This document shows, one piece after another, positions 6,483 through 27,122 of a stretch of 64,000 bases of DNA. The notes below the pieces were generated by a model. That model saw only the letters and a list, made by a program, of their open reading frames with translations. It had not been told where the DNA came from and searched no databases. The translations under genes were made by a program, and so were the position numbers. Origin of the DNA: an uncultured Acidobacteriota bacterium (lineage in GTDB: Bacteria; Acidobacteriota; DATKUA01); NCBI GenBank assembly GCA_964408025.1, contig CAYOXX010000001.1, positions 7,627-71,626 of the forward strand, in the 5' to 3' direction. Each line of letters opens with the position of its first letter. Position 1 is the first letter of the stretch.

Positions 6483-6511
6483 TTGACAGGCCCGGGGGCG
6501 TGTGATACTTA
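6483..6511 (+). promoter_or_regulatory. Candidate sigma70-type promoter for the rplU-rpmA-obg-rsfS operon
   Basis: A perfect TTGACA -35 box lies ~50 nt upstream of the rplU ATG. It is followed by TGtGATACT, an extended -10-like element with a 15-nt spacer, or TACTTA with a 17-nt spacer. Confidence 0.3.
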
Positions 6512-6537
6512 CTTGCGCTCCGTTGGAGAGCGTGCGG

Positions 6538-7107
6538 ATGGAAAAAGACGAGAATATTGCGGTGATCGCCACAGGCGGCAAGCAGTACCGCGTGCGCGAG
6601 GGCGATCGTATCAGCATCGAGGTCCTGGACGCGGAACCGGGGAAAGACGTCAAGTTCGCCGACGTGCTGCTGCTGCGCAAGGGTGGCAAAACAGAAATCG
6701 GCATGCCCACGGTAACGGGTGCCAGCGTAACCGGGAAGGTGCTCGAGAAGTTCAAGGGCGAGAAAATAGTCGTCTTCAAGAAGAAAAAGCGCAAGGGATA
6801 CAAGCGGACGCGCGGCCACCGCCAGAACCTCCTGATGGTAGAGATCGGGAGCATCAACGCCAAGCCCGCGGCGGCGCCGAAGGAGACGGCAGCCAAAACA
6901 AAGGCGGCGCCCGCTAAGAAGACGGGCAAGGCAAAGGCGGCGCCGAAGAAGGCCGCTCCAAAGGCAAAGGCAGCGCCGAAGAAAGCCGCACCGAGGAAGA
7001 CCGCCGCCAAGGTCGCGGAGAAGCCGAAGAAGGTTGAGGCGAAGGCTAGGCCGACGGCAATGAAGACCTCCGCGAAGAAGAGTGCCGCCGCCAAGAAAAG
7101 CGAATAG
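6538..7107 (+). CDS. rplU: 50S ribosomal protein L21 with an ~85 aa Lys/Ala/Pro-rich histone-H1-like C-terminal extension
   Basis: The core reads MEKDENIAVIATGGKQYRVREGDRISIEVL...KKKRKGYKRTRGHRQNLLMVEI, which is L21. The tail is AKPAAAPKETAAKTKAAPAKKTGKAKAAPKK.... The ATG at 6538 has GGAGAG 6 nt upstream, whereas the ORF-track start at 6502 is GTG. Confidence 0.85.
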   Translation: MEKDENIAVIATGGKQYRVREGDRISIEVLDAEPGKDVKFADVLLLRKGGKTEIGMPTVTGASVTGKVLEKFKGEKIVVFKKKKRKGYKRTRGHRQNLLMVEIGSINAKPAAAPKETAAKTKAAPAKKTGKAKAAPKKAAPKAKAAPKKAAPRKTAAKVAEKPKKVEAKARPTAMKTSAKKSAAAKKSE

Positions 7108-17355: not shown

Positions 17356-18414
17356 ATGTTTGGGCGTCGCAAGCGTCTGCTTGGCGTCGATATTGGCTCA
17401 CACGCCATCAAGTCGGTGCTGCTCAAGCGCTCGAAGAAGGGCGGCATGCAGTACGAGCTGGAGAAGATCGCGCTGGAGCCGGTACCGCCGCAGGTGATTG
17501 TCGAGGGCGACATAATCGATTCGGTCACCGTCATAGACGTGTTCGACCGCCTGCTGCGCTCCATGCGTACGCGGGTCAACGACGTCGCCATCGCCATGGC
17601 CGGCAACTCGGTGATAATTAAGAAGATCGCCATGCCCGGCATGAGCGAGGAGGATCTCGAGGATTCGATTCAGTGGGAGGCGGAGCAGTACATCCCCTTC
17701 GAGATCGACGAAGTAATGGTTGACTACCATTTGATGTCCGAGTCGACGGAAGGCGGTTCAATGGACGTAGTGTTGGTGGCGGTCAAGAAGGACAAGATAC
17801 TCGACTACACCAGCATCGTCAGCCAAGCGGGCAAGTCGACGGCGGTTGTGGACGTCGACGTCTTTGCCATCCAGAACTGCTTCGACGTCAACTACCAGGA
17901 CGTCGGTGGCGCCAACATAGGCCTGGTGAACATCGGGGCAAGCGTCACCAGCATCAACATCCTGGAGGACGGCAGGACCTCGTTCTGGCGCGACATCATC
18001 GCCGGCGGCAACAAGCACACCGAGGCGCTACAGCGGGACCTGGGCCTGGGGATCGAGCAGGCGGAGGACGCCAAGCGTGGCTTTGAGGTCGAGGGGGCAC
18101 CACCCGACGCAGTGATTTCGGTGCTTGACAAGGCTTCGGAAGAGGTCGTCGACGTGATAGCCAAGACCTTCGATTTCTACCGGGGCAGCTCCGGCGGCGC
18201 GTCGCTGGAGAGGGTTTACGTCGGCGGCGGCGCGGCAGCGACCTCCGATTTCCTCGACATGCTCGGCGGCAGGATCGGCGTGCCGGTGGAGATGATGGAT
18301 CCGTTCCGCGCCATCTCGGTAAACCCGAAGAAGTTCGATGTCGATTACATCCGCGACCAGAGTACCAGCTTCGCGGTCGCAGTAGGCTTGGCGCTGCGGG
18401 AGGCTGACTACTGA
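17356..18414 (+). CDS. pilM: Type IV pilus assembly protein PilM (actin-like ATPase fold)
   Basis: 352 aa. LGVDIGSHAIKSVLLK... is the PilM/FtsA-like N-terminus. It heads a pilMNOPQ gene order. Confidence 0.85.
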   Translation: MFGRRKRLLGVDIGSHAIKSVLLKRSKKGGMQYELEKIALEPVPPQVIVEGDIIDSVTVIDVFDRLLRSMRTRVNDVAIAMAGNSVIIKKIAMPGMSEEDLEDSIQWEAEQYIPFEIDEVMVDYHLMSESTEGGSMDVVLVAVKKDKILDYTSIVSQAGKSTAVVDVDVFAIQNCFDVNYQDVGGANIGLVNIGASVTSINILEDGRTSFWRDIIAGGNKHTEALQRDLGLGIEQAEDAKRGFEVEGAPPDAVISVLDKASEEVVDVIAKTFDFYRGSSGGASLERVYVGGGAAATSDFLDMLGGRIGVPVEMMDPFRAISVNPKKFDVDYIRDQSTSFAVAVGLALREADY

Positions 18415-19058
18415 TGATACGTATAAACCTGCTGCGCAGAGAGCGCGTCAAGGAGAAAAGGGTAAAGGTACCCGCGCGGGCTCCGACGCAGATGGTGGGT
18501 CAGCTGGGCTTCGTGGCCGTTTTCGTCGTCACGCTGGCGGTGATCGCCTTTCTCTGGCTGGACGTCCAGGGCAAGAAGGGCAACCTGGAGAGCGAGTACC
18601 GCGCGGCGTCGCAGGAGCGGGAGCGACTGCGCGGCGTGGAGGAACTGGTCAACCGGCTGGAGGCCGAGAGGGAGCGGCTGGCGACGCGCCTGCGGACGCT
18701 CAGCGACCTCAAGGACAACCTGCGCACGCCTTACTACGGCATCGGCGTGATCTGGGCCGCCTATCTGCCCCTGGAAAACAACCGCGATTTCGCCCTCTCC
18801 AGCGTCGCTCAGGAAACGGACTCTGATGTACGCTTCGTCGTCGAGGGAGAGGCGTCCCGGGATGCACTCCTGCGGTTTCACGACAACCTCAACGGCTTCA
18901 CCGAGCTGGTGCAACGGGTGCGCATTCTCGAGCACCAGTACGAGCGCGACGGGAGATTCGAGTTGCTAGTCGAGTTTGTAAATTTCGGTGACTTGAGGAC
19001 GGAATCGCAGGAGAGCGAAGCGTCGCCCAGCGTGAGCGAGGGGGGCGAGGGGTCGTAG
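18414..19058 (+). CDS. pilN: Type IV pilus assembly protein PilN
   Basis: It has the N-terminal INLL motif (MIRINLLRRE), one TM and a coiled-coil region. Its start overlaps the pilM stop. Confidence 0.75.
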   Translation: MIRINLLRRERVKEKRVKVPARAPTQMVGQLGFVAVFVVTLAVIAFLWLDVQGKKGNLESEYRAASQERERLRGVEELVNRLEAERERLATRLRTLSDLKDNLRTPYYGIGVIWAAYLPLENNRDFALSSVAQETDSDVRFVVEGEASRDALLRFHDNLNGFTELVQRVRILEHQYERDGRFELLVEFVNFGDLRTESQESEASPSVSEGGEGS

Positions 19059-19060
19059 CG

Positions 19061-19642
19061 ATGCAGAATCTGCCGTACTGGGGACAGCTGTTGATCGTGG
19101 TCGGCGTCTGCGCGGTGATGGGTTTCATGTTCTATCAGTTCATCTATACAAACGAGTTGCAGGAAGTCACGGATATCGAGGCGCGGCTCGAATCGGTGAA
19201 CGCCGAGATCCGCCGATTCAGGCCGTACGAGCACCGCATGGGCGAGCTGGAGCGGGAGATCGAGGAGATCAGAGCCGACCTGGAGCTGATACGCTCCGTC
19301 TTCCCGGAGGAGATTGACGACGCCGCGCTCAACCGGTTTGTGGGTAGCGTCGCCAACAGCGACAACATCTACTTGGCCAACTACAGCGCCGGCGAGATGA
19401 TCGATCAGGAGCAGTACCTGGAGCTGGTCGTCAACTACAACTCGCGCGGGCGCTTCCAGGACTTCCTGAATTTCTTCAACGACATCGGCAGCCGGGGGCA
19501 GGTGATGCACATCTACGGGCTCAACATGGAGCGCTCCTCCTCGCGACAGAATCCCAGCGGCCGCCACCCCGTGACAGCGAGCTTCACGATCTCCACTTAC
19601 ATCTACAAGGAGATCGCCGAGGAGCCGGAGGAGAGCGAGTGA
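19061..19642 (+). CDS. pilO: Type IV pilus assembly protein PilO
   Basis: 193 aa with an N-terminal TM, a coiled coil and a C-terminal ferredoxin-like domain. Its position between pilN and pilP/Q supports the call. Confidence 0.65.
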   Translation: MQNLPYWGQLLIVVGVCAVMGFMFYQFIYTNELQEVTDIEARLESVNAEIRRFRPYEHRMGELEREIEEIRADLELIRSVFPEEIDDAALNRFVGSVANSDNIYLANYSAGEMIDQEQYLELVVNYNSRGRFQDFLNFFNDIGSRGQVMHIYGLNMERSSSRQNPSGRHPVTASFTISTYIYKEIAEEPEESE

Positions 19643-20226
19643 GCGGCGAGCACAACAGGTTTTGCGCGCGCGGCTCCGGCCACGGCGGGCTCTGGGGTGG
19701 GGGTGTCGCGGCGCTGCTACTGTGCCTGCTGTTCGCGCTGGCGGCGGAGCTGCCGGCACAGGAGGAGCCGACCCAGCCGCGGCAGCAGGGCAGGTGGGTG
19801 GGAGCCATGCCGGAGATAAACACCCTGGAGGAGCTGGAGCGCTTCCTGAGGCAGTTCCTGACCGACCGCACTCGGCGGCGCGACCCGTTCACGCGCGAAG
19901 TGCAGGAGGCGCAGCAGTCCTCGGCCACCTATCAGCTCCAGACGCGCCCTCGGCCGGCTTCAGGTTTCGGGCGCTACGACATAGACGACCTCACACTCCA
20001 GGCCATCTGGAACGACGGCGAGCAGATTACCGCGGTCTTCAGGGCGCCGGATCAGAAGCTGTTCATCGTGTCCGTCGGGGATGAGGCTTACGACGGCCGC
20101 ATTGTGGAGATAAACATAGAGCAGCGCTACGTGAGGTTCATGCAGGAACTCAGACGGGTCGGCCAGCAAGCGGAGGGCCAGCCGGTCGTAAGGTACGAGC
20201 CTAAGATCGTCAGGTTACGACGGTGA
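19639..20226 (+). CDS. Putative PilP-like pilus assembly protein
   Basis: 195 aa. It has a hydrophobic N-terminal segment and a beta-rich C-terminal domain, and sits in the PilP position of the cluster. The call rests on position only. Confidence 0.4.
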   Translation: MSGEHNRFCARGSGHGGLWGGGVAALLLCLLFALAAELPAQEEPTQPRQQGRWVGAMPEINTLEELERFLRQFLTDRTRRRDPFTREVQEAQQSSATYQLQTRPRPASGFGRYDIDDLTLQAIWNDGEQITAVFRAPDQKLFIVSVGDEAYDGRIVEINIEQRYVRFMQELRRVGQQAEGQPVVRYEPKIVRLRR

Positions 20227-20236
20227 GGAGGAGGCT

Positions 20237-23200
20237 ATGGGCTTCAGGGTGACCGTCACTCTCGCCGCGTTCACGGCGGCCTGCCTCTGGCTGGCGGTAT
20301 CCGGGCCGGTCGCTGTGGCGCAGGACGAGACCCTGCGAATAATCGATCTCCAGTACCTGGAAAGCGGCAGCACGAGCAGGCTTGTCGTTCGGGCCAGTCT
20401 ACCGTTTACCTACAGGGCCTACTCCGAGGGCACCGGGACGCTGGTGATCGAAACCGACGCTGCCGACACAAGCGACATCGCGCCGGGCATTACCATAGGA
20501 TCCAGATTTGTGCACAGCATCACCGTGGAGAACAGGCGCGCGGAACAGGATAGGGAGGTGACCGCGATAACCATCCGCTACAGGCCGGAGAACCGCTACG
20601 AGATCACGCCTCGCGGAAGAAGGCTCTTCATAGATTTCGCCCCGGCCGACGCCGGGGTGCCTGAACAGTCGACCGCGGAGGAGACCGCAACGGCTTCGCG
20701 AGAGCCCGATGAGGTAGGGGAGCCGGCTGACGCACCCGAACCGGAAGCCGAAGGAAGCCACGGCGATTCAACAGGCCCCGATTCGACGGCAGCACCGCGG
20801 CCCACCGATTCCGATTCCCTGCGTTATAGGTTGGATCCAGTGGTGACGTACTCGCTCACCGCGCTGCGCGTCGACAGGTCCAGAGGCGGCGTCGAGATAG
20901 TGATCTCCACGGACCGCCCCATGGAGCGGAGACTTTACCGAATCGTGCCGGTGGGGCCGCCCCCGCGCTACGTCGTCGACCTGCACGGCGCCACCAACAA
21001 CCTGCGGCGAGGAATAACCGAAGCTGTATCCGGTTACTTCGCCAGCATTCGCACGGCGCAGTTCGACGTGAATCCGTACCCAATTTCGCGCGTGGTGCTC
21101 GATATTGAAGACGAGCGGTGGCCGCAGGCCTTCTCCAGAGGGAATGACCTTGTCCTGAGCTTCAGCGTCGATGCCGAGGCAGCAGGCGCCGGCGGTAGCG
21201 AAACCGCCCGAGTGGAGCCGGTCGTCGTTGTTTCGGCCGACCAGCCGCGGATCGAGGAACCGACTGAAGCCGAAGCCGGAGGCGCGACCGGGTCCGCAGA
21301 CGTCGCCGAACAGGAACCAACAAGTGTTGAGCGGAAGGCCGACGCCGCTGAGTCAGGTGAGACTCGCGAAGTAATTTACGACCCGGCACCGGAGCCGGAA
21401 CCGGCCGTGGAGCCGGCATTAGAGGTGGAGGCCGATGCTGCCGAGAAAGGTGAGGCTCGCGAAGTAACTTCCGATCCGGCACCGGAGACGGAAGAGGCTG
21501 TGGAGCCGGCATTAGAGGTAGAGGCCGATGCTGCTGAGACAGGTGAGCCTCGCGAAGTAATTTCCGATCAGGCACCGGAGACGGAAGAGGCTGTGGAGCC
21601 GGCATTAGAGGTAGAGGCCGATGCTGCTGAGACAGGTGAGACTCGCGAAGTAATTTCCGATCAGGCACCCGAGCCGGAACCGGCCGTGGAGCCGGTGTTA
21701 GAGCCGGAAGCTGAGGCGGAGCCGGAATCAGAGCCGGAAGCTGATGCGGAAGTCGGCTCGCTGCCGTTCGAGTCCGAGCAGGCGTCTCGAGGCGATGCGC
21801 AGCCCGCGATTGCGGCGCACAGCAGTGAAGCGTCGGCGAGCTATGACTATGTTTCGACGTCGGGCAGTGACGCCGCAGCGGAGGCGGAAGCCGAGGTCGC
21901 GACTGGCGGTACTACGGGAATCACGGAGCCGCCGGAGGAGAATCTGCAGCTCTTCTCTGAGCAGTATCCAGACGGCATGAGGTCGAGCTCCGCAGTGGCG
22001 AGCGCAACGCATCCGGCGCCGGTCGGCACTCGACCGCAGCAGCAGAGCGAGGCACCGCAGCAGGGCGGCGAGGAGCAGTTCGATCTCACGACGGAGCGAG
22101 ACCAAGATTTCTTCCGCACCCGCGAGATCACGCCCAGCGAAAGGCGTTACAGAGGCCGCAGGGTGAACCTCGAGTTCGAGAGCATCAGCCTGCGAGCGCT
22201 GATTCTGCTACTGGGCCAGATGACCGATAAGAACTTCATTGTCGATCCGTCGGTCAGGCATCTGGAAGTGTCGCTCAGCCTGCGGGACGTGCCATGGGAC
22301 CAGGCTCTGGAAATCATTCTCGACTACTACGGTCTGGGAAGCGTCGAGGAGGACAACGTCATCCGCATCGCCACGCGGCAAAGGCTGACCCAGGAGGCCG
22401 AGGAGCGCCGCCAGCTGGCCCTGCAGCGCGCCCTGTCGGTGCCGCGCCGGCAGGTTACGAGGCCGGTGAACTACGCCAAGGCGAGCGACCTGCTGGCGCT
22501 CATCCGGCGCAACCTCAGCAGCCAGGGGGAGGCGGTGGTCGACGAGAGGACGAACACGCTTGTGATCACTGACATCCCCTCCAAGGTCGACGAGCACCTC
22601 GCACTGCTCGAGGCCCTGGACATACCGACAAGGCAAGTGATAGTCGAGGCGCGCATAGTAGAGACGACGCGAGACTTCATCAACGAGTTCGGTCTCCAGT
22701 ACGGATTCCGGGCCTCGGCGACGTCGGATTACGGCAGCTCCACGGGGTTGATATTTCCGAACCAGATGACTATCTCCGGTGGCGGACCTGAGTTCTCGCC
22801 GAATCTGCTGCCGTTCGCCGTCAACCTGCCTGCCTCGACGATAAACAGCTCGATTCTCGGTTCCTTCGCCAACATCAATGGCTCGTTCATTCTCGACGCC
22901 ATACTCACGGCGGCGGAGAGCGAGCGCAAGGTGAGGGTGCTCAGCCGGCCCCGCATCAGCGCCCTGAACAACGACCGGGCGGAGATCAAGAGCGGCATCG
23001 AGGTCCCCTATCAGGTGATCCAGAACAACACGGTCTCCATCCGTTGGCGAGAGGCGACGTTGAGGCTGACGGTAACACCTCACATAACCTCCGACGCCAC
23101 CGTGATCTTGGATGTCGAGGTCGACAAGAGCTCGCTGGGCATTCAGACGGCGGCCGGATTCACCATCCAAACGCGGCAGGCGACGAGCACGGTGCTGGTG

Positions 23201-23377
23201 CCCGACGGCGGCGTAGCCGTCATCGGCGGGGTTCTGGAGATCTCCGAGAACATCACCAGCGAGCGGACTCCTTTCCTGCACCGGATCCCGCTGATAGGTC
23301 GCCTCTTCCGCAGCAGGCAGGAGCGAGTCCAGAACACCGAGTTGCTGATCTTTATTTCGCCGAAGATCATCGGCTAG
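20237..23377 (+). CDS. pilQ: Type IV pilus secretin PilQ (1046 aa) with two N-terminal AMIN domains and an acidic tandem-repeat linker
   Basis: It has a signal peptide. The AMIN-like domains read LRIIDLQYLESG..LVIET and LRYRLDPVV...YVVDLHG. The secretin N and secretin C-terminal motifs are present (VLVPDGGVAVIGGVL...IPLIGRLFRSRQERVQNTELLIFISPKII). Confidence 0.85.
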   Translation: MGFRVTVTLAAFTAACLWLAVSGPVAVAQDETLRIIDLQYLESGSTSRLVVRASLPFTYRAYSEGTGTLVIETDAADTSDIAPGITIGSRFVHSITVENRRAEQDREVTAITIRYRPENRYEITPRGRRLFIDFAPADAGVPEQSTAEETATASREPDEVGEPADAPEPEAEGSHGDSTGPDSTAAPRPTDSDSLRYRLDPVVTYSLTALRVDRSRGGVEIVISTDRPMERRLYRIVPVGPPPRYVVDLHGATNNLRRGITEAVSGYFASIRTAQFDVNPYPISRVVLDIEDERWPQAFSRGNDLVLSFSVDAEAAGAGGSETARVEPVVVVSADQPRIEEPTEAEAGGATGSADVAEQEPTSVERKADAAESGETREVIYDPAPEPEPAVEPALEVEADAAEKGEAREVTSDPAPETEEAVEPALEVEADAAETGEPREVISDQAPETEEAVEPALEVEADAAETGETREVISDQAPEPEPAVEPVLEPEAEAEPESEPEADAEVGSLPFESEQASRGDAQPAIAAHSSEASASYDYVSTSGSDAAAEAEAEVATGGTTGITEPPEENLQLFSEQYPDGMRSSSAVASATHPAPVGTRPQQQSEAPQQGGEEQFDLTTERDQDFFRTREITPSERRYRGRRVNLEFESISLRALILLLGQMTDKNFIVDPSVRHLEVSLSLRDVPWDQALEIILDYYGLGSVEEDNVIRIATRQRLTQEAEERRQLALQRALSVPRRQVTRPVNYAKASDLLALIRRNLSSQGEAVVDERTNTLVITDIPSKVDEHLALLEALDIPTRQVIVEARIVETTRDFINEFGLQYGFRASATSDYGSSTGLIFPNQMTISGGGPEFSPNLLPFAVNLPASTINSSILGSFANINGSFILDAILTAAESERKVRVLSRPRISALNNDRAEIKSGIEVPYQVIQNNTVSIRWREATLRLTVTPHITSDATVILDVEVDKSSLGIQTAAGFTIQTRQATSTVLVPDGGVAVIGGVLEISENITSERTPFLHRIPLIGRLFRSRQERVQNTELLIFISPKIIG
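21338..21709. repeat. Four in-frame tandem 93-bp repeats (31 aa units ADAAE.GE.REV..D.APE.E.AVEP.LEVE) inside pilQ
   Basis: Period 93 nt. Copies start at ~21338, 21431, 21524 and 21617. Copies 3 and 4 are nearly identical at the DNA level. A degenerate acidic EPEAEAEPESEPEADAE tail follows. Confidence 0.85.
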
Positions 23378-23387
23378 GGGTGAAAAG

Positions 23388-23936
23388 ATGTCGAGAAAAC
23401 TGCTGATTCTGCCGGCGCTGGCCATCCTGATTTTCGCCCTCTCTTGCAGCGAGGAGAGGGGCCAGGTAATCCTCACAGTCGCGTCGATCAACCCCACCTC
23501 CGAGCCCTTCGGGGACATCATGGATGAAGACGGTATCATTCCGCCGGACACAGTCGACATAGAGCTCCACAACGACCTCAAGAATCCTGGGGGGCTGGGG
23601 AGTCTGACCTTTGCCGACATCGTTGTGGAGTCGGTCACCATCAGCTTCACGCGCGTCGACGGCGGCTCGGACGAGCCCGCGACGTTCCGCACGGCCACGA
23701 GCTACTTGATACCGGCCCAGGGAATCCTGACGATCACCGATTTCCTGATCATTCCCGCGACACTGAAGGCCCAGTTTCCGCTGAGCGATCTGCTCTACTA
23801 CGGATTCGAGCGCAGCACCAATTTCGCCAGCATTCGAATGGACGTTCGACTGGAGTTCGCCGGCCACACACACGAAGGAGATCCCGTCTACGCGTCTGGG
23901 AGTATCACCATGGAATTCACGAACTGGGCGGACTGA
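23388..23936 (+). CDS. Hypothetical lipoprotein (182 aa)
   Basis: It has a signal peptide with a lipobox-like FALSC. It has no recognisable domain. It lies 10 nt after pilQ on the same strand. Confidence 0.5.
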   Translation: MSRKLLILPALAILIFALSCSEERGQVILTVASINPTSEPFGDIMDEDGIIPPDTVDIELHNDLKNPGGLGSLTFADIVVESVTISFTRVDGGSDEPATFRTATSYLIPAQGILTITDFLIIPATLKAQFPLSDLLYYGFERSTNFASIRMDVRLEFAGHTHEGDPVYASGSITMEFTNWAD

Positions 23937-23955
23937 GCGCGCAGGAGGATAACAG

Positions 23956-25344
23956 ATGAGGCGAGCGGCGAGATCAATCAGTTGGTTAGTGCTGTTGGCG
24001 GTTCTCTGGTTGCCGCCGGGCGGCTGCAGCCCAGAGGATCCGGCAACGCCGACCCAACCGACTACGCAACCACCGGCGACCGGCGCGCGGGCCGTCAGCG
24101 TCAGCGTTTCGCCGAGTAGGATTCCGGCTGACGGCATCTCGGCCGCGCTCATCATAGCCAGCTGCTACGTGGGCGGCCAGTCAGCGCCGGACAACCTGCC
24201 GGTGAGTTTCACCACGGACCGCGGCGATTTAAGCCTAAACGGCGTCGATCCGATAAATGCGGACCAGCCGACGCACTCAGCCACGTTATACACCTCCGGC
24301 GGCACGGTTAGCATCTATCTGATCAGCGAGGCGGCGCCAGCGACAGCTCGCTTGAATGTTTACTTTGGCACCGATGCGGCGGCCAGCGCCAGCATCGAAT
24401 TCATCCTCAGCGACCAGCAAATAGGTTCGATTGAGCTCACTTTGACTCCCGAGAACGGCAACTCTCCCCTCACGATTTTAGCCTCGGCTACCGTGAAGTC
24501 GCCGAACGACGACACGATGCAGGGGCTCCGCGTCACCTTCGAGATCGACGACCCCTCGGCCTCCATCGACGACAGGAGGATCAAGACCGATAGCAGCGGC
24601 ATCGCGGCGACCTACATCAGCGGTATCGTCAGGGACGCGACGGTGACCGCCTCGGTCGGGGATTACGTCGCCATGAAGCAGGTGAGGATCGACAACGAGG
24701 AGGCCAAGCTGCTGACCCTCGAGGCGCTCGACGAAACCGGAACGGCGAGAAGCGAGCCGGTGCTGGTCGGCTCATCGTGGCAGATGCTGCTGCGCGCCTC
24801 GGTAAGCAGCGAGACCACCGGAGGCTCCCCAGTACCGGGAGTGGTTGTCTCGTTCAGTTCCAACATCTCCGGCGCCAGCTTCGGAAGCAGCCAGGTGACC
24901 ACCAATTCCAACGGCGAAGCCGAGACGTACATCTTCAACATGGGCAGCGACGGCTACATAACGGCTTCCGCACCGGGGGCCGACGACACGCTGTTTGTGA
25001 AGCTGAACAGGCCGCCGGTTGCGCGCATCGACGTACTCTCCGGAACCGACGCTAACGGAGACGGCTACGCGGGCGATGTCAACGTTTTCGTGTTATCCGC
25101 AGCGCGAAGCTACGATCCCGACGAGAACTTCGGCGATTCGATAGAATATTCGTGGACGTTTACCATCAATTCTTCTGCCGACGTTAATGTTAGCCCGTCA
25201 ACGAGCACCGACGAGGTAGTGACCGTAACCGTGGGCGACGCGACGACGCAACCTGCTGCAGGCGACATACTGACGATAACACTGACGGTGACCGACGAAA
25301 ACGGCCTGCAGGACACCGAGGTCATGACGATAGAATTCCAATGA
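23956..25344 (+). CDS. Surface/lipoprotein with bacterial Ig-like (Big) domains
   Basis: It has a signal peptide and a Cys (LPPGGCS), then a PT-rich linker. Repeated ~90 aa beta-rich modules (...VSVSPSRIPADGISAALIIAS..., ...VTFEIDD..SGIAATYISG..., ...VVSFSSNISGASFG...) are typical of invasin/intimin-type Ig-like repeats. Confidence 0.5.
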   Translation: MRRAARSISWLVLLAVLWLPPGGCSPEDPATPTQPTTQPPATGARAVSVSVSPSRIPADGISAALIIASCYVGGQSAPDNLPVSFTTDRGDLSLNGVDPINADQPTHSATLYTSGGTVSIYLISEAAPATARLNVYFGTDAAASASIEFILSDQQIGSIELTLTPENGNSPLTILASATVKSPNDDTMQGLRVTFEIDDPSASIDDRRIKTDSSGIAATYISGIVRDATVTASVGDYVAMKQVRIDNEEAKLLTLEALDETGTARSEPVLVGSSWQMLLRASVSSETTGGSPVPGVVVSFSSNISGASFGSSQVTTNSNGEAETYIFNMGSDGYITASAPGADDTLFVKLNRPPVARIDVLSGTDANGDGYAGDVNVFVLSAARSYDPDENFGDSIEYSWTFTINSSADVNVSPSTSTDEVVTVTVGDATTQPAAGDILTITLTVTDENGLQDTEVMTIEFQ

Positions 25345-25433
25345 TGTTGTCCCTAAAGTGTTTGACTTCCAAGGTTTTGGCGTCATACACTTGGATTGGA
25401 AATCTTCTGCGGAAACTGGCCGAGGAGAATTAG

Positions 25434-27122
25434 ATGGCCGAAGATTCCGATGGCGAAATTGTACTCTCACCGAGGCTGGAATCGCTGTCAGAGGAGTATG
25501 CCAAGGATCCGACCTCGAAGAAGTTCTATCCGCTCGCCGAAGAATACCGCAAGTCGGGCATGTTTGACGAGGCGATATACATCTGCAGTGAGGGCCTCAA
25601 GAACCACCCGGGCTATCTTCCGGCCCAGATGACGCTGGCGCACTGCTACGTCGAGACGAAGAATTATATAGAAGGTCAACTGCTGCTGCAGGAAATACTC
25701 GAAGAACACCCCGAAAACGCTCCGGCGCACCGTCTAGCGGGGGACCTCTACTTCTCCCAGGGCGAGATCGATTCGGCCCGTGAGCATTATCTGGCAGCGC
25801 AGAAGCTGCGTCCCGACGACCAAATCGTTGATGAGCGGCTGCAGATGATTGATTTCCCCGAGAAGGACCTGACGTCGGACAGGGAGATCGATGTCTCGGC
25901 GACACCCGAGCCCCCGGCCGCCGAGGAGTCTCCGGGTTTGGAGTTGAGTGGGGCCGTAGACGGGGACGCAGGTGAACCGGAGCTTGATCTTGATGATGCG
26001 GACGAGCCCACCGACGTCGTTCTGACGCTAGGTGACGAAGCCGAGTCTGTGGACCTGTTTGTTCCGACGCAGAAGCGTATGGCAGTCGTCGAGGAGCCGG
26101 TTGCGCCGGAGCCCTCCGCTGCGGAATCCCAAGATGAGGTTTCTGTTATTGAGAGCGGGCTGGCGGATACCTCGCCCCCGGAAGAGACCGATGAGGTGGT
26201 AGCCGAGGAACAGGCCGGAGTCGGCGATTCTATCGAGGTCGGTGACGCGGAGGTTGCCGCGTTTGCTGAACCGGCAGGGGAAGAAGAAGGCGGCGGTGAG
26301 CCGCTGTTGCCGCAGGAAGAGATAGAGCCCCTCGAGATACCGCAGTTGGAAACCGCAGGGGTAGCCGAGGCCGACTCGGTTCCGACCTTGGAATCTCCCG
26401 ACGAGATTACGGTGAGATTCGAATCCCCTCCGTTACAGGAAGGACGGGAAGAGGATATCGGTGTTCCCGAAGAGGCTGAACGGGAGCTCAAGGTCGACGC
26501 GACGGCCCTGGTTCTCGAGCTCGAGAGCCTGTCGCCTGAAGAGCTCCAGGAGGTCCCTCCGGAGGAGATGGTGCTGGGCGAGGGGGATATCATCGAGAGG
26601 GGCGTTGCGCCAGCGCTCGAAGCGGAAGCCGAAGCTGTCGCCGATAAGGAGATCGAGATCGGGCCGGAAGCGCTCGAGGCGCCGGCGGAGCCGTCAGCAG
26701 AGCCGGCGGAAGCGCGAGAACAGGAAGTCCCCGCGGAGGTGGCGGAGCCGCCCGCCGTGGAGGAGCCTTTTCTCGTCGAGCCGCTGGAGATCGGCGACCT
26801 GGCAGTGGGGGAGCATGTCGCCGCGGAGCCCGAGGCGCCAGAGAGTGAGGAAGAGCTGCCGGCGCCGCCAACCATCACCTCGGCGAAGATTTACGAGGAA
26901 CAGGGTCACCTGGCCGAGGCCCTCGAGATATACAGGTGGCTTCTCGAGCGAGATCCCGATTTCAGGCATCTCGGAGGCAAGGTCAGAGAACTCGAAAGAG
27001 AACTAGAGCTGGCAGCGGCAAGCTCTGTGGACGACTCGCAGCAGCGGAAGGTCGAGAAGCTGCGAAGATGGCTTCGCAACATCGAAGCGTTCGAGGGCGG
27101 GCGGAACGTCCAAGATGCGTAG
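25434..27122 (+). CDS. TPR-repeat protein with long acidic Glu/Pro/Ala-rich low-complexity middle region
   Basis: The N-terminal TPR-like helices read AEEYRKSGMFDEAIYICSEGLKNHP... and AGDLYFSQGEIDSAREHY. A ~330 aa acidic linker follows. A C-terminal TPR reads AKIYEEQGHLAEALEIYRWLLERDPD. There is no signal peptide or TM. Confidence 0.55.
   Translation: MAEDSDGEIVLSPRLESLSEEYAKDPTSKKFYPLAEEYRKSGMFDEAIYICSEGLKNHPGYLPAQMTLAHCYVETKNYIEGQLLLQEILEEHPENAPAHRLAGDLYFSQGEIDSAREHYLAAQKLRPDDQIVDERLQMIDFPEKDLTSDREIDVSATPEPPAAEESPGLELSGAVDGDAGEPELDLDDADEPTDVVLTLGDEAESVDLFVPTQKRMAVVEEPVAPEPSAAESQDEVSVIESGLADTSPPEETDEVVAEEQAGVGDSIEVGDAEVAAFAEPAGEEEGGGEPLLPQEEIEPLEIPQLETAGVAEADSVPTLESPDEITVRFESPPLQEGREEDIGVPEEAERELKVDATALVLELESLSPEELQEVPPEEMVLGEGDIIERGVAPALEAEAEAVADKEIEIGPEALEAPAEPSAEPAEAREQEVPAEVAEPPAVEEPFLVEPLEIGDLAVGEHVAAEPEAPESEEELPAPPTITSAKIYEEQGHLAEALEIYRWLLERDPDFRHLGGKVRELERELELAAASSVDDSQQRKVEKLRRWLRNIEAFEGGRNVQDA

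Follow-up and report, generated by a model that had tools for sequence, protein, structure and literature searches.

Why does the secretin of a type IV pilus carry a run of nearly identical acidic repeats between its N-terminal domains and its pore-forming part, and does the number of these repeats differ between closely related bacteria? The question is raised by the gene pilQ in a stretch of 64,000 nucleotides from an uncultured Acidobacteriota bacterium (contig CAYOXX010000001.1 of GenBank assembly GCA_964408025.1, positions 7,627 to 71,626), the whole of which we call the window. A first-pass annotation of this DNA had described four 93-bp tandem repeats in frame within pilQ, and had proposed that their copy number varies between strains and that this could tune the distance between a peptidoglycan anchor and the outer-membrane pore. 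In our analysis we found the repeats, and we found alleles that bear different numbers of them. The array is probably a young in-frame minisatellite in a disordered acidic tether, with units that are turned over by recombination or slippage and with a tether that acts as a near-neutral leash.

An in-frame 93-bp array in pilQ

Tandem Repeats Finder (TRF) reported one strong array (21336-21703; period 93, 4.0 copies, 90% matches, 0% indels, score 568). When the codons of pilQ were shuffled 200 times as a control, the top score was 57 and a period of at least 30 was seen in 0 of the 200 shuffles, so that the claim of four in-frame tandem repeats is borne out (568 against at most 57). The units are arranged head-to-tail, all four are in frame with the open reading frame (ORF) 20237-23377(+), and the array makes up amino acids 368-491 of PilQ. 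Each unit is translated into 31 residues with the pattern ADAAE.GE.REV..D.APE.E.AVEP.LE.E and a net charge of -9 or -10. The degenerate Glu/Pro/Ala tail that had been noted behind the array is likewise present, both in the translation and in the form of weak TRF repeats of the same composition at 21671-21750 (30 nt x 2.7 and 18 nt x 2.1).

How similar the units are to each other depends on the register in which they are compared. Copies 3 and 4 had been described as almost identical. This is correct in a shifted register, where a lag-93 identity scan finds 98 of 99 bases shared between 21478-21576 and 21571-21669, but it does not hold in the codon register, in which units 3 and 4 agree at 81 of 93 positions and units 2 and 3 form the closest pair (88/93). 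The units have a mosaic structure: units 2 and 3 agree fully in their second halves, units 3 and 4 differ by a single base in their first halves, and units 1 and 4 share a PEPEPAVEP variant in their second halves. The longest-repeat search yielded a perfect direct repeat of 70 nt, whose left copy consists of the end of unit 2 and the start of unit 3 and whose right copy consists of the end of unit 3 and the start of unit 4. Unit 3 is marked by a private codon, CCT, which gives GEPREV.

Some other explanations for the presence of the array were considered and rejected. It is not a foreign insertion: there is no GC anomaly across it, and a sister lineage has the same units. Nor does the minus-strand ORF 21162-21668(-) represent a gene; it mirrors the repeat within the PilQ frame, which is well supported. 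This ORF has 168 aa and is itself repetitive (…PDRKLLRE.HLSQQHRP…). A structured RNA was rejected as well, the Rfam matches in the window being one distant tRNA only. A protein search with the array alone returned no match, and it did not recover the parent PilQ either, low-complexity words having swamped the candidates.

Alleles with four, three and two units

Copy numbers were read from short-read metagenome assemblies. At 90% identity the PilQ proteins form a cluster with two members of 1046 aa and three of 1015 aa, which lack exactly 31 aa in comparison. The nearest cluster beside it, at 82% identity, has a length of 983 aa. Outside the array, the 3- and 4-unit alleles are 99.8-100% identical. 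The window (L001, JGI 3300008517) provides the reference array of four units, and L003 (ERZ25073496) has four units in an array identical to it. Three units, corresponding to units 1, 2 and 4, are found in L004 (JGI 3300028837): its array is that of the window minus exactly 93 nt, and it agrees with the window throughout the remainder of pilQ and at each of the 25 positions that vary within 9 kb. Two other contigs bear three units as well, L005 (ERZ27251135, a k=141 contig) with one G>A change in the last unit, and L006 (JGI 3300007871) with the same G>A change and with different units 1 and 2. In the sister lineage, represented by L002 at 9% nucleotide divergence, there are two units that are distinct from each other. 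Across the assemblies the repeat number is hence not invariant, and at this level the variation that the first-pass annotation had predicted was found, with alleles of four, three and two units.

The diagnostic unit 3 was also found in L007 and L097, two partial contigs that come from further samples, and its private codon is present in four independent assemblies (window, L003, L007 and L097). Because unit 3 recurs in these partial contigs, the 4-unit form is not an artefact of over-expansion. A scan of metagenome DNA with the degenerate unit pattern returned one contig, again L007, in which unit 3 is present and which ends inside the array. By their flanking single-nucleotide polymorphisms the contigs fall into two haplotype groups, one with the window and L004, the other with L003, L005, L006 and L007. 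Both the 3-unit and the 4-unit alleles occur in each group; therefore the copy number has changed at least twice independently, or recombination has taken place.

In L006 the array has diverged by ~4%, compared to 0.18% outside it. Going by the assembled sequences, alleles are more diverse in the array than beside it. The difference between three and four copies is likely to be real, and the two units of the sister lineage are a safer finding than this difference. The unit was seen only in one species-level group and its sister lineage, and it was not found in clade relatives at 52-71% identity. Nature thus provides an allelic series of 2, 3 and 4 units, with which one can ask if the length or the charge of this part of PilQ matters for type IV pilus machines. 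As a separate observation, contig L102 (SRR6056591) has a unit-2 variant, ADAAETGEA for ADAAEKGEA, which is the same as in unit 2 of L006.

How units may be gained and lost

A deletion of one period anywhere within the 70-nt perfect repeat turns the array of the window into that of L004. The 70-nt repeat is confined to 4-unit alleles; in 3-unit alleles the longest exact repeat is at most 31 nt. It is because of this perfect direct repeat that a clean gain or loss of one unit can be expected. Conversion between units is suggested by L006, where 8 of the 10 differences between its unit 1 and unit 1 of the window are bases that stand at the same position in other units. The two units of L002 match each other at 86 of 93 positions and any unit of the window less well, and the last of them is nearest to unit 4 of the window. 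On sequence grounds, these patterns are the signature of unequal crossing-over or slippage combined with conversion between units, i.e. of concerted evolution, and the terminal units are presumably orthologous, with the internal units 2 and 3 being a recent expansion. Head-to-tail units, an indel of exactly 93 nt and mosaic or converted units are all present, as in a coding minisatellite or variable number tandem repeat (VNTR).

Probably units are gained, lost and shuffled when the 93-bp units recombine unequally with each other or slip during replication, for which the 70-nt perfect repeat across units 2/3 and 3/4 would be an evident substrate. With a unit length of 31 codons the reading frame is always kept, and the 2-, 3- and 4-unit alleles all retain a full-length ORF; frame-shifting phase variation was rejected for these reasons. 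One such event would alter each PilQ protomer by 31 residues and by ~9-10 negative charges; assuming a ring of 14 subunits, the number found in P. aeruginosa PilQ, this would add up to ~130-140 charges for each ring. Most likely the acidic region behaves as a long, flexible and self-repelling leash and not as a ruler. Changes in copy number would then be tolerated and nearly neutral, and would not serve as a tuning device.

The acidic tether between AMIN2 and N0

The first-pass annotation had placed the repeats behind two AMIN domains and in front of N0. This order is correct, while the name AMIN is backed by sequence for the second domain and by fold only for the first. The second domain (AMIN2) matches PF11741 at aa 210-293 with 25-29 bits (cut-off 20.5) and has a predicted local distance difference test (pLDDT) score of 70-84 in the full-length AlphaFold model; binding of peptidoglycan is predicted for it from this match. 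For the first domain, aa 31-137, there was no Pfam match (7 orthologues) and no PDB profile match, and its comparison to AMIN2 by hhalign was not significant (probability 0.3%). Its own AlphaFold model is all beta, with a pLDDT of 93.6, and the top Foldseek matches are 4BIN (E. coli AmiC), 3JC8_Qa (M. xanthus PilQ model) and 4AQZ (N. meningitidis PilQ B2) at TM scores of 0.71-0.74. An AMIN assignment is thus suggested by the predicted fold.

Between AMIN2 and N0 lies a low-complexity tether. From AMIN2 to a conserved motif (253 aa) it contains 28% D+E and 4% K+R, with a net charge of about -61. All clade members (52-82% identity) have an acidic tether with 24-34% D+E, and it is unalignable among them except for this one motif. 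Linker length varies across the related PilQ, the AMIN2-to-motif stretch ranging from 113 to 253 aa. With 640 aa, the region in front of N0 ranks fifth among 150 PilQ homologues (median 423 aa), and similarly acidic linkers occur in 22 of the 150. The motif at aa 562-582 has a ratio of nonsynonymous to synonymous substitution rates (dN/dS) of 0.15, and its residues E564, E568, L572, F573, Y577 and P578 are shared without exception by 10 clade members, at identities as low as 52%; by its conservation it may be a docking motif. Compared to the sister lineage, and with small counts throughout, dN/dS amounts to 0.26 before the array, 0.32 in the array and 1.0 in the tail after it, as against 0.07 from N0 to the secretin domain, 0.10 in the first AMIN-fold domain and 0.20 in AMIN2. 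To judge from these ratios, selection is relaxed in the tether.

In the full-length AlphaFold model, aa 313-640 are without predicted secondary structure and have a pLDDT below 50. If the 328-aa tether scales like a disordered chain, the expected end-to-end distance is ~12.8 nm and the contour length ~125 nm. Without one unit these values become ~12.2 nm and 113 nm, i.e. the end-to-end distance changes by ~0.6 nm. With a contour much longer than any periplasm, the tether is far longer than geometry requires. Published work on PilQ has it that AMIN domains bind peptidoglycan and that N0 binds PilP. We regard the tether as a leash from the wall-bound AMIN to N0, the periplasmic base of the secretin, and not as a spacer between wall and pore.

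Some points weigh against a near-neutral minisatellite in a disordered leash. The full-length model is poor overall (mean pLDDT 44, from a 10-sequence alignment), and because the secretin domain, which is known to be folded, also scores low with so shallow an alignment, the low pLDDT supports disorder of the linker only weakly. The dN/dS of the array is ~0.32 and not 1, again from small counts, so its sequence does not seem to be fully unconstrained. Finally, units may have been collapsed in some of the 3-unit contigs, L004 in particular, because the assemblies are built from short reads and several of them break inside the array.

Tuning, artefact or binding module?

If the number of repeats were selected for the length or charge of the tether, be it for envelope geometry or for the efficiency of pilus assembly, the array would be a fast-evolving adjustable module of PilQ. 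Copy number has indeed changed at least twice among strains that are ~0.1-0.2% different elsewhere; however, the 70-nt perfect repeat alone predicts a high turnover for which selection is not needed. The array dN/dS of ~0.3 suggests some constraint on the unit sequence, and a long, very acidic tether is kept across the whole clade. Against this, relatives at 52-71% identity lack the units, which makes the repeat no conserved functional module, and the relatives manage with tethers as different as 113 and 253 aa from AMIN2 to the motif. Support from other systems comes from the small basic repeats (SBR) of Neisseria PilQ, which are reported to affect how efficiently pili form (PMC3441751, citing Tonjum 1998), and from the proposal that PilQ extends or contracts by ~20 Angstrom between the piliated and the non-piliated state (bioRxiv 10.1101/2020.05.29.123786). 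One unit here would shift the expected span of a 328-aa coil by ~0.6 nm only. The tuning of the distance between peptidoglycan anchor and pore is physically weak, and adaptive tuning in its wider sense seems unlikely to us.

Could the array be real and the differences between three and four units nevertheless be produced by collapse or mis-joining during assembly, with the same number of units in all strains? Contigs L007, L092, L094, L097, L102, L103 and L107, which represent at least five other samples, stop within the array, where the 70-nt repeated block has its edges. In these broken assemblies PilQ is split into N- and C-terminal fragments of 423 aa and 588 or 621 aa. The broken contigs come from Logan (SRR3095939, SRR6056591 and SRR26215678) and from Ga0114922 and Ga0111033. 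Logan contigs were taken as built from 31-mers; because a pure 1-2-4 allele has no repeated 31-mer, the breaks indicate that unit 3 or mixtures of alleles were present. An assembly artefact would fit well with breaks exactly at the edges of the block, with L004 being the window except for the missing period, as collapse would give, and with the coverage of L002, which is only 3.6x. It fits less well with a 4-unit array that is the same to the base in two complete, independent assemblies and is partly seen in another two, or with three 3-unit contigs from three samples that are mutually different (G>A in L005 and L006; units 1 and 2 in L006). Moreover, L005 stems from a k=141 graph, whereas the longest exact repeat is 70 nt, and the 2-unit allele belongs to a lineage diverged by 9% and has two distinct units. 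We consider an artefact an unlikely source of the variation. In any case, PilQ lengths in metagenome-assembled genomes (MAGs) should not be trusted at the array site, because the array breaks short-read assemblies or may collapse in them.

That the 31-aa acidic unit is instead a functional module which binds divalent cations, a partner protein or a peptidoglycan-associated factor, so that copies set valency and not length, is highly improbable: the charge of -9 or -10 per unit in a regular Glu/Asp/Pro pattern, an array dN/dS below 1 and the recurrence of acid-rich linkers in 22 of 150 PilQ homologues would agree with it, but the array region has no predicted secondary structure in the full-length AlphaFold model, the unit is restricted to one species-level group and its sister lineage, and recent duplication and conversion account for the similarity of the units.

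Host gene and neighbourhood

By its profile matches the host protein is the type IVa pilus secretin PilQ. It reaches 336.9 bits with the PilQ model TIGR02515 (cut-off 284.35), and the GspD, HofQ, SctC and MshL models all remain under their cut-offs. Pfam matches are Secretin (PF00263, aa 892-1045, 143 bits, cut-off 27.5) and Secretin_N (PF03958, aa 743-800, 44.5 bits, cut-off 28.2); the N0 domain (PF21305, aa 646-711) scores 24.8 bits, slightly below its cut-off of 27. The gene is the last one of a pilMNOPQ cluster (Table 1), in which the ORF in the position of pilN has no Pfam or NCBIfam match. The nearest PilQ at the species level is from an uncultured bacterium MAG at 55% identity, followed by others at ~40%, mostly from Acidobacteriota. 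Two of the runs that carry the pil operon are from Baltic Sea sediments, taken at sub-seafloor depths of 0.75-3 m in the Bornholm Basin or Aarhus Bay (PMC9301287).

Table 1. Coordinates of the pil genes in the window and of the features within pilQ
Feature	Position	Strand	Basis
pilM	17356-18414	+	Pfam PilM_2, E=1e-73
pilN-position ORF	18414-19058	+	place in cluster
pilO	19061-19642	+	Pfam PilO, E=2e-9
pilP	19639-20226	+	Pfam PilP, E=3.5e-7
pilQ, type IVa pilus secretin, 1046 aa	20237-23377	+	TIGR02515, Pfam
First N-terminal beta domain, aa 31-137, predicted AMIN fold	20327-20647	+	AlphaFold (AF2) model, Foldseek
Second AMIN domain, aa 194-311	20816-21169	+	Pfam PF11741
Acidic low-complexity tether, aa 312-639, ~328 aa	21170-22153	+	composition, low pLDDT
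Four in-frame 93-bp units, head-to-tail	21338-21430, 21431-21523, 21524-21616, 21617-21709	+	TRF, translation
70-nt perfect direct repeat, left copy	21478-21547	+	longest-repeat search
70-nt perfect direct repeat, right copy	21571-21640	+	longest-repeat search
Degenerate Glu/Pro/Ala tail after the array, AEAEPESEPEADAE	21710-21751	+	translation, TRF
Conserved short motif in the tether, aa 562-582, EPPEENLQLFSEQYPDGMRSS	21920-21982	+	clade alignment
N0, N1/Secretin_N and secretin pore domains, aa 640-1045	22154-23371	+	Pfam, NCBIfam

Directly 3' of pilQ there is an ORF of 182 aa (23388-23936(+)) whose N-terminus resembles that of a lipoprotein (…LSC). Pfam and NCBIfam gave no match for it, and 16 contigs encode the identical protein. 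Next come a gene for a Big_1-domain protein (23956-25344(+)) and one for a TPR protein of 562 aa, for which the matches of PilW and GltE type are weak (25434-27122(+)). From position and sequence, the genes at 23388-27122(+) are candidate pilotin or accessory genes. Elsewhere in the 64-kb window, the only other tandem array with a TRF score of at least 80 is a 33-nt x 3.5 repeat at 6870-6983, which falls in the Lys/Ala/Pro-rich C-terminal extension of ribosomal protein L21 (rplU, 6502-7107(+)).

Comparison with known repeats and linkers of PilQ

The closest known parallel is the SBR of Neisseria PilQ, an octapeptide (PAKQQAAA) that is present in 4-7 copies in N. meningitidis and in 2-3 copies in N. 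gonorrhoeae (PMC3031610); its primary description is Tonjum et al. 1998 (Mol Microbiol 29:111), as cited in PMC2884949, PMC3441751 and PMC3031610. Berry et al. 2012 called these polymorphic repeats unprecedented in the secretin family (PMC3441751). In both systems tandem repeats lie in frame in a low-complexity N-terminal part of PilQ beside AMIN ('B') domains. Copy number differs between strains and species in Neisseria, and it probably does so here, with 4, 3 and 2 units at the assembly level. However, the Neisseria repeat is a basic octapeptide and the unit described here has 31 aa with a net charge of -9 or -10, and there is no sequence similarity between them. The SBR lies between the two AMIN/B domains (PMC3441751), whereas the array at aa 368-491 follows AMIN2, which ends at ~aa 311, and precedes N0 at ~aa 640. 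The SBR region, which is basic, has a part in DNA binding (PMC2884949); a polyacidic tether would be expected to repel DNA. Neisseria is the system in which an effect on piliation has been studied. Because it fails the defining features of sequence, charge and position, we regard it as an analogue and not as a member of the SBR.

The order of domains (AMIN, linker, N0, N1/N3, secretin) is the same as in PilQ of M. xanthus and P. aeruginosa. In M. xanthus the AMIN domains sit on flexible linkers and recruitment occurs via septal and polar peptidoglycan (PMC10653833); in the cryo-electron microscopy map of P. aeruginosa PilQ, AMIN and N0 are unresolved, which fits random orientations. Unlike in these proteins, the tether here is unusually long and strongly acidic, and it contains a recent expansion of 4 x 31 aa.

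Are such repeats more common in this part of PilQ? Tandem repeats upstream of N0 were found in 30 of 80 other PilQ loci, and 37 of 41 periods are multiples of 3. A strict repeat test at the protein level was passed by 4 of 148 other PilQ homologues. The loci with repeats are mostly from Acidobacteriota MAGs: L061 (2194-2315, 39 nt x 3.1, 97% identical), L024 (2818-2950, 33 nt x 4), L016 (2815-2966, 48 nt x 3.2), L022 (2913-3002) and L045 (2907-2972). Among the protein sequences, repeats are seen in P0098 (acidic 15-mer x 3.3), P0111 (7-mer x 6.3), P0136 and P0166. As far as these sequences go, the survey suggests that repeats commonly change the length of the AMIN-N0 tether. The array described here is the largest that was found; in contrast to it, the repeats in PilQ linkers of other uncultured bacteria have shorter units (5-16 aa), which are mostly rich in Pro and Ala. 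Among the unrelated linker repeats seen in other PilQ are KPDATSAQPALLS (x3 at 97% DNA identity), the acidic EEEVPAVEEELALPV (x3.3) and EPVAVAE (x6.3).

It is tempting to think of secretin tethers as general hot spots of rapid and selectable variation in length and charge, and of the array as a second, independent adjustable module of PilQ beside the Neisseria SBR. If this were true, copy number might set the charge of a polyanionic ring in the vestibule, cation handling, engagement with peptidoglycan or the efficiency of assembly, and sediment populations would keep several alleles by selection and not by mutation pressure alone. We consider this idea improbable. With VNTRs of bacterial envelope proteins in general, the array shares head-to-tail units in multiples of 3, concerted evolution and change by whole units, and there is no difference in principle. 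In conclusion, the locus provides an acidic 31-aa repeat, unrelated to that of Neisseria, in a different linker of PilQ and in an environmental bacterium; otherwise it is an expected and fairly ordinary case of length variation in a disordered linker.

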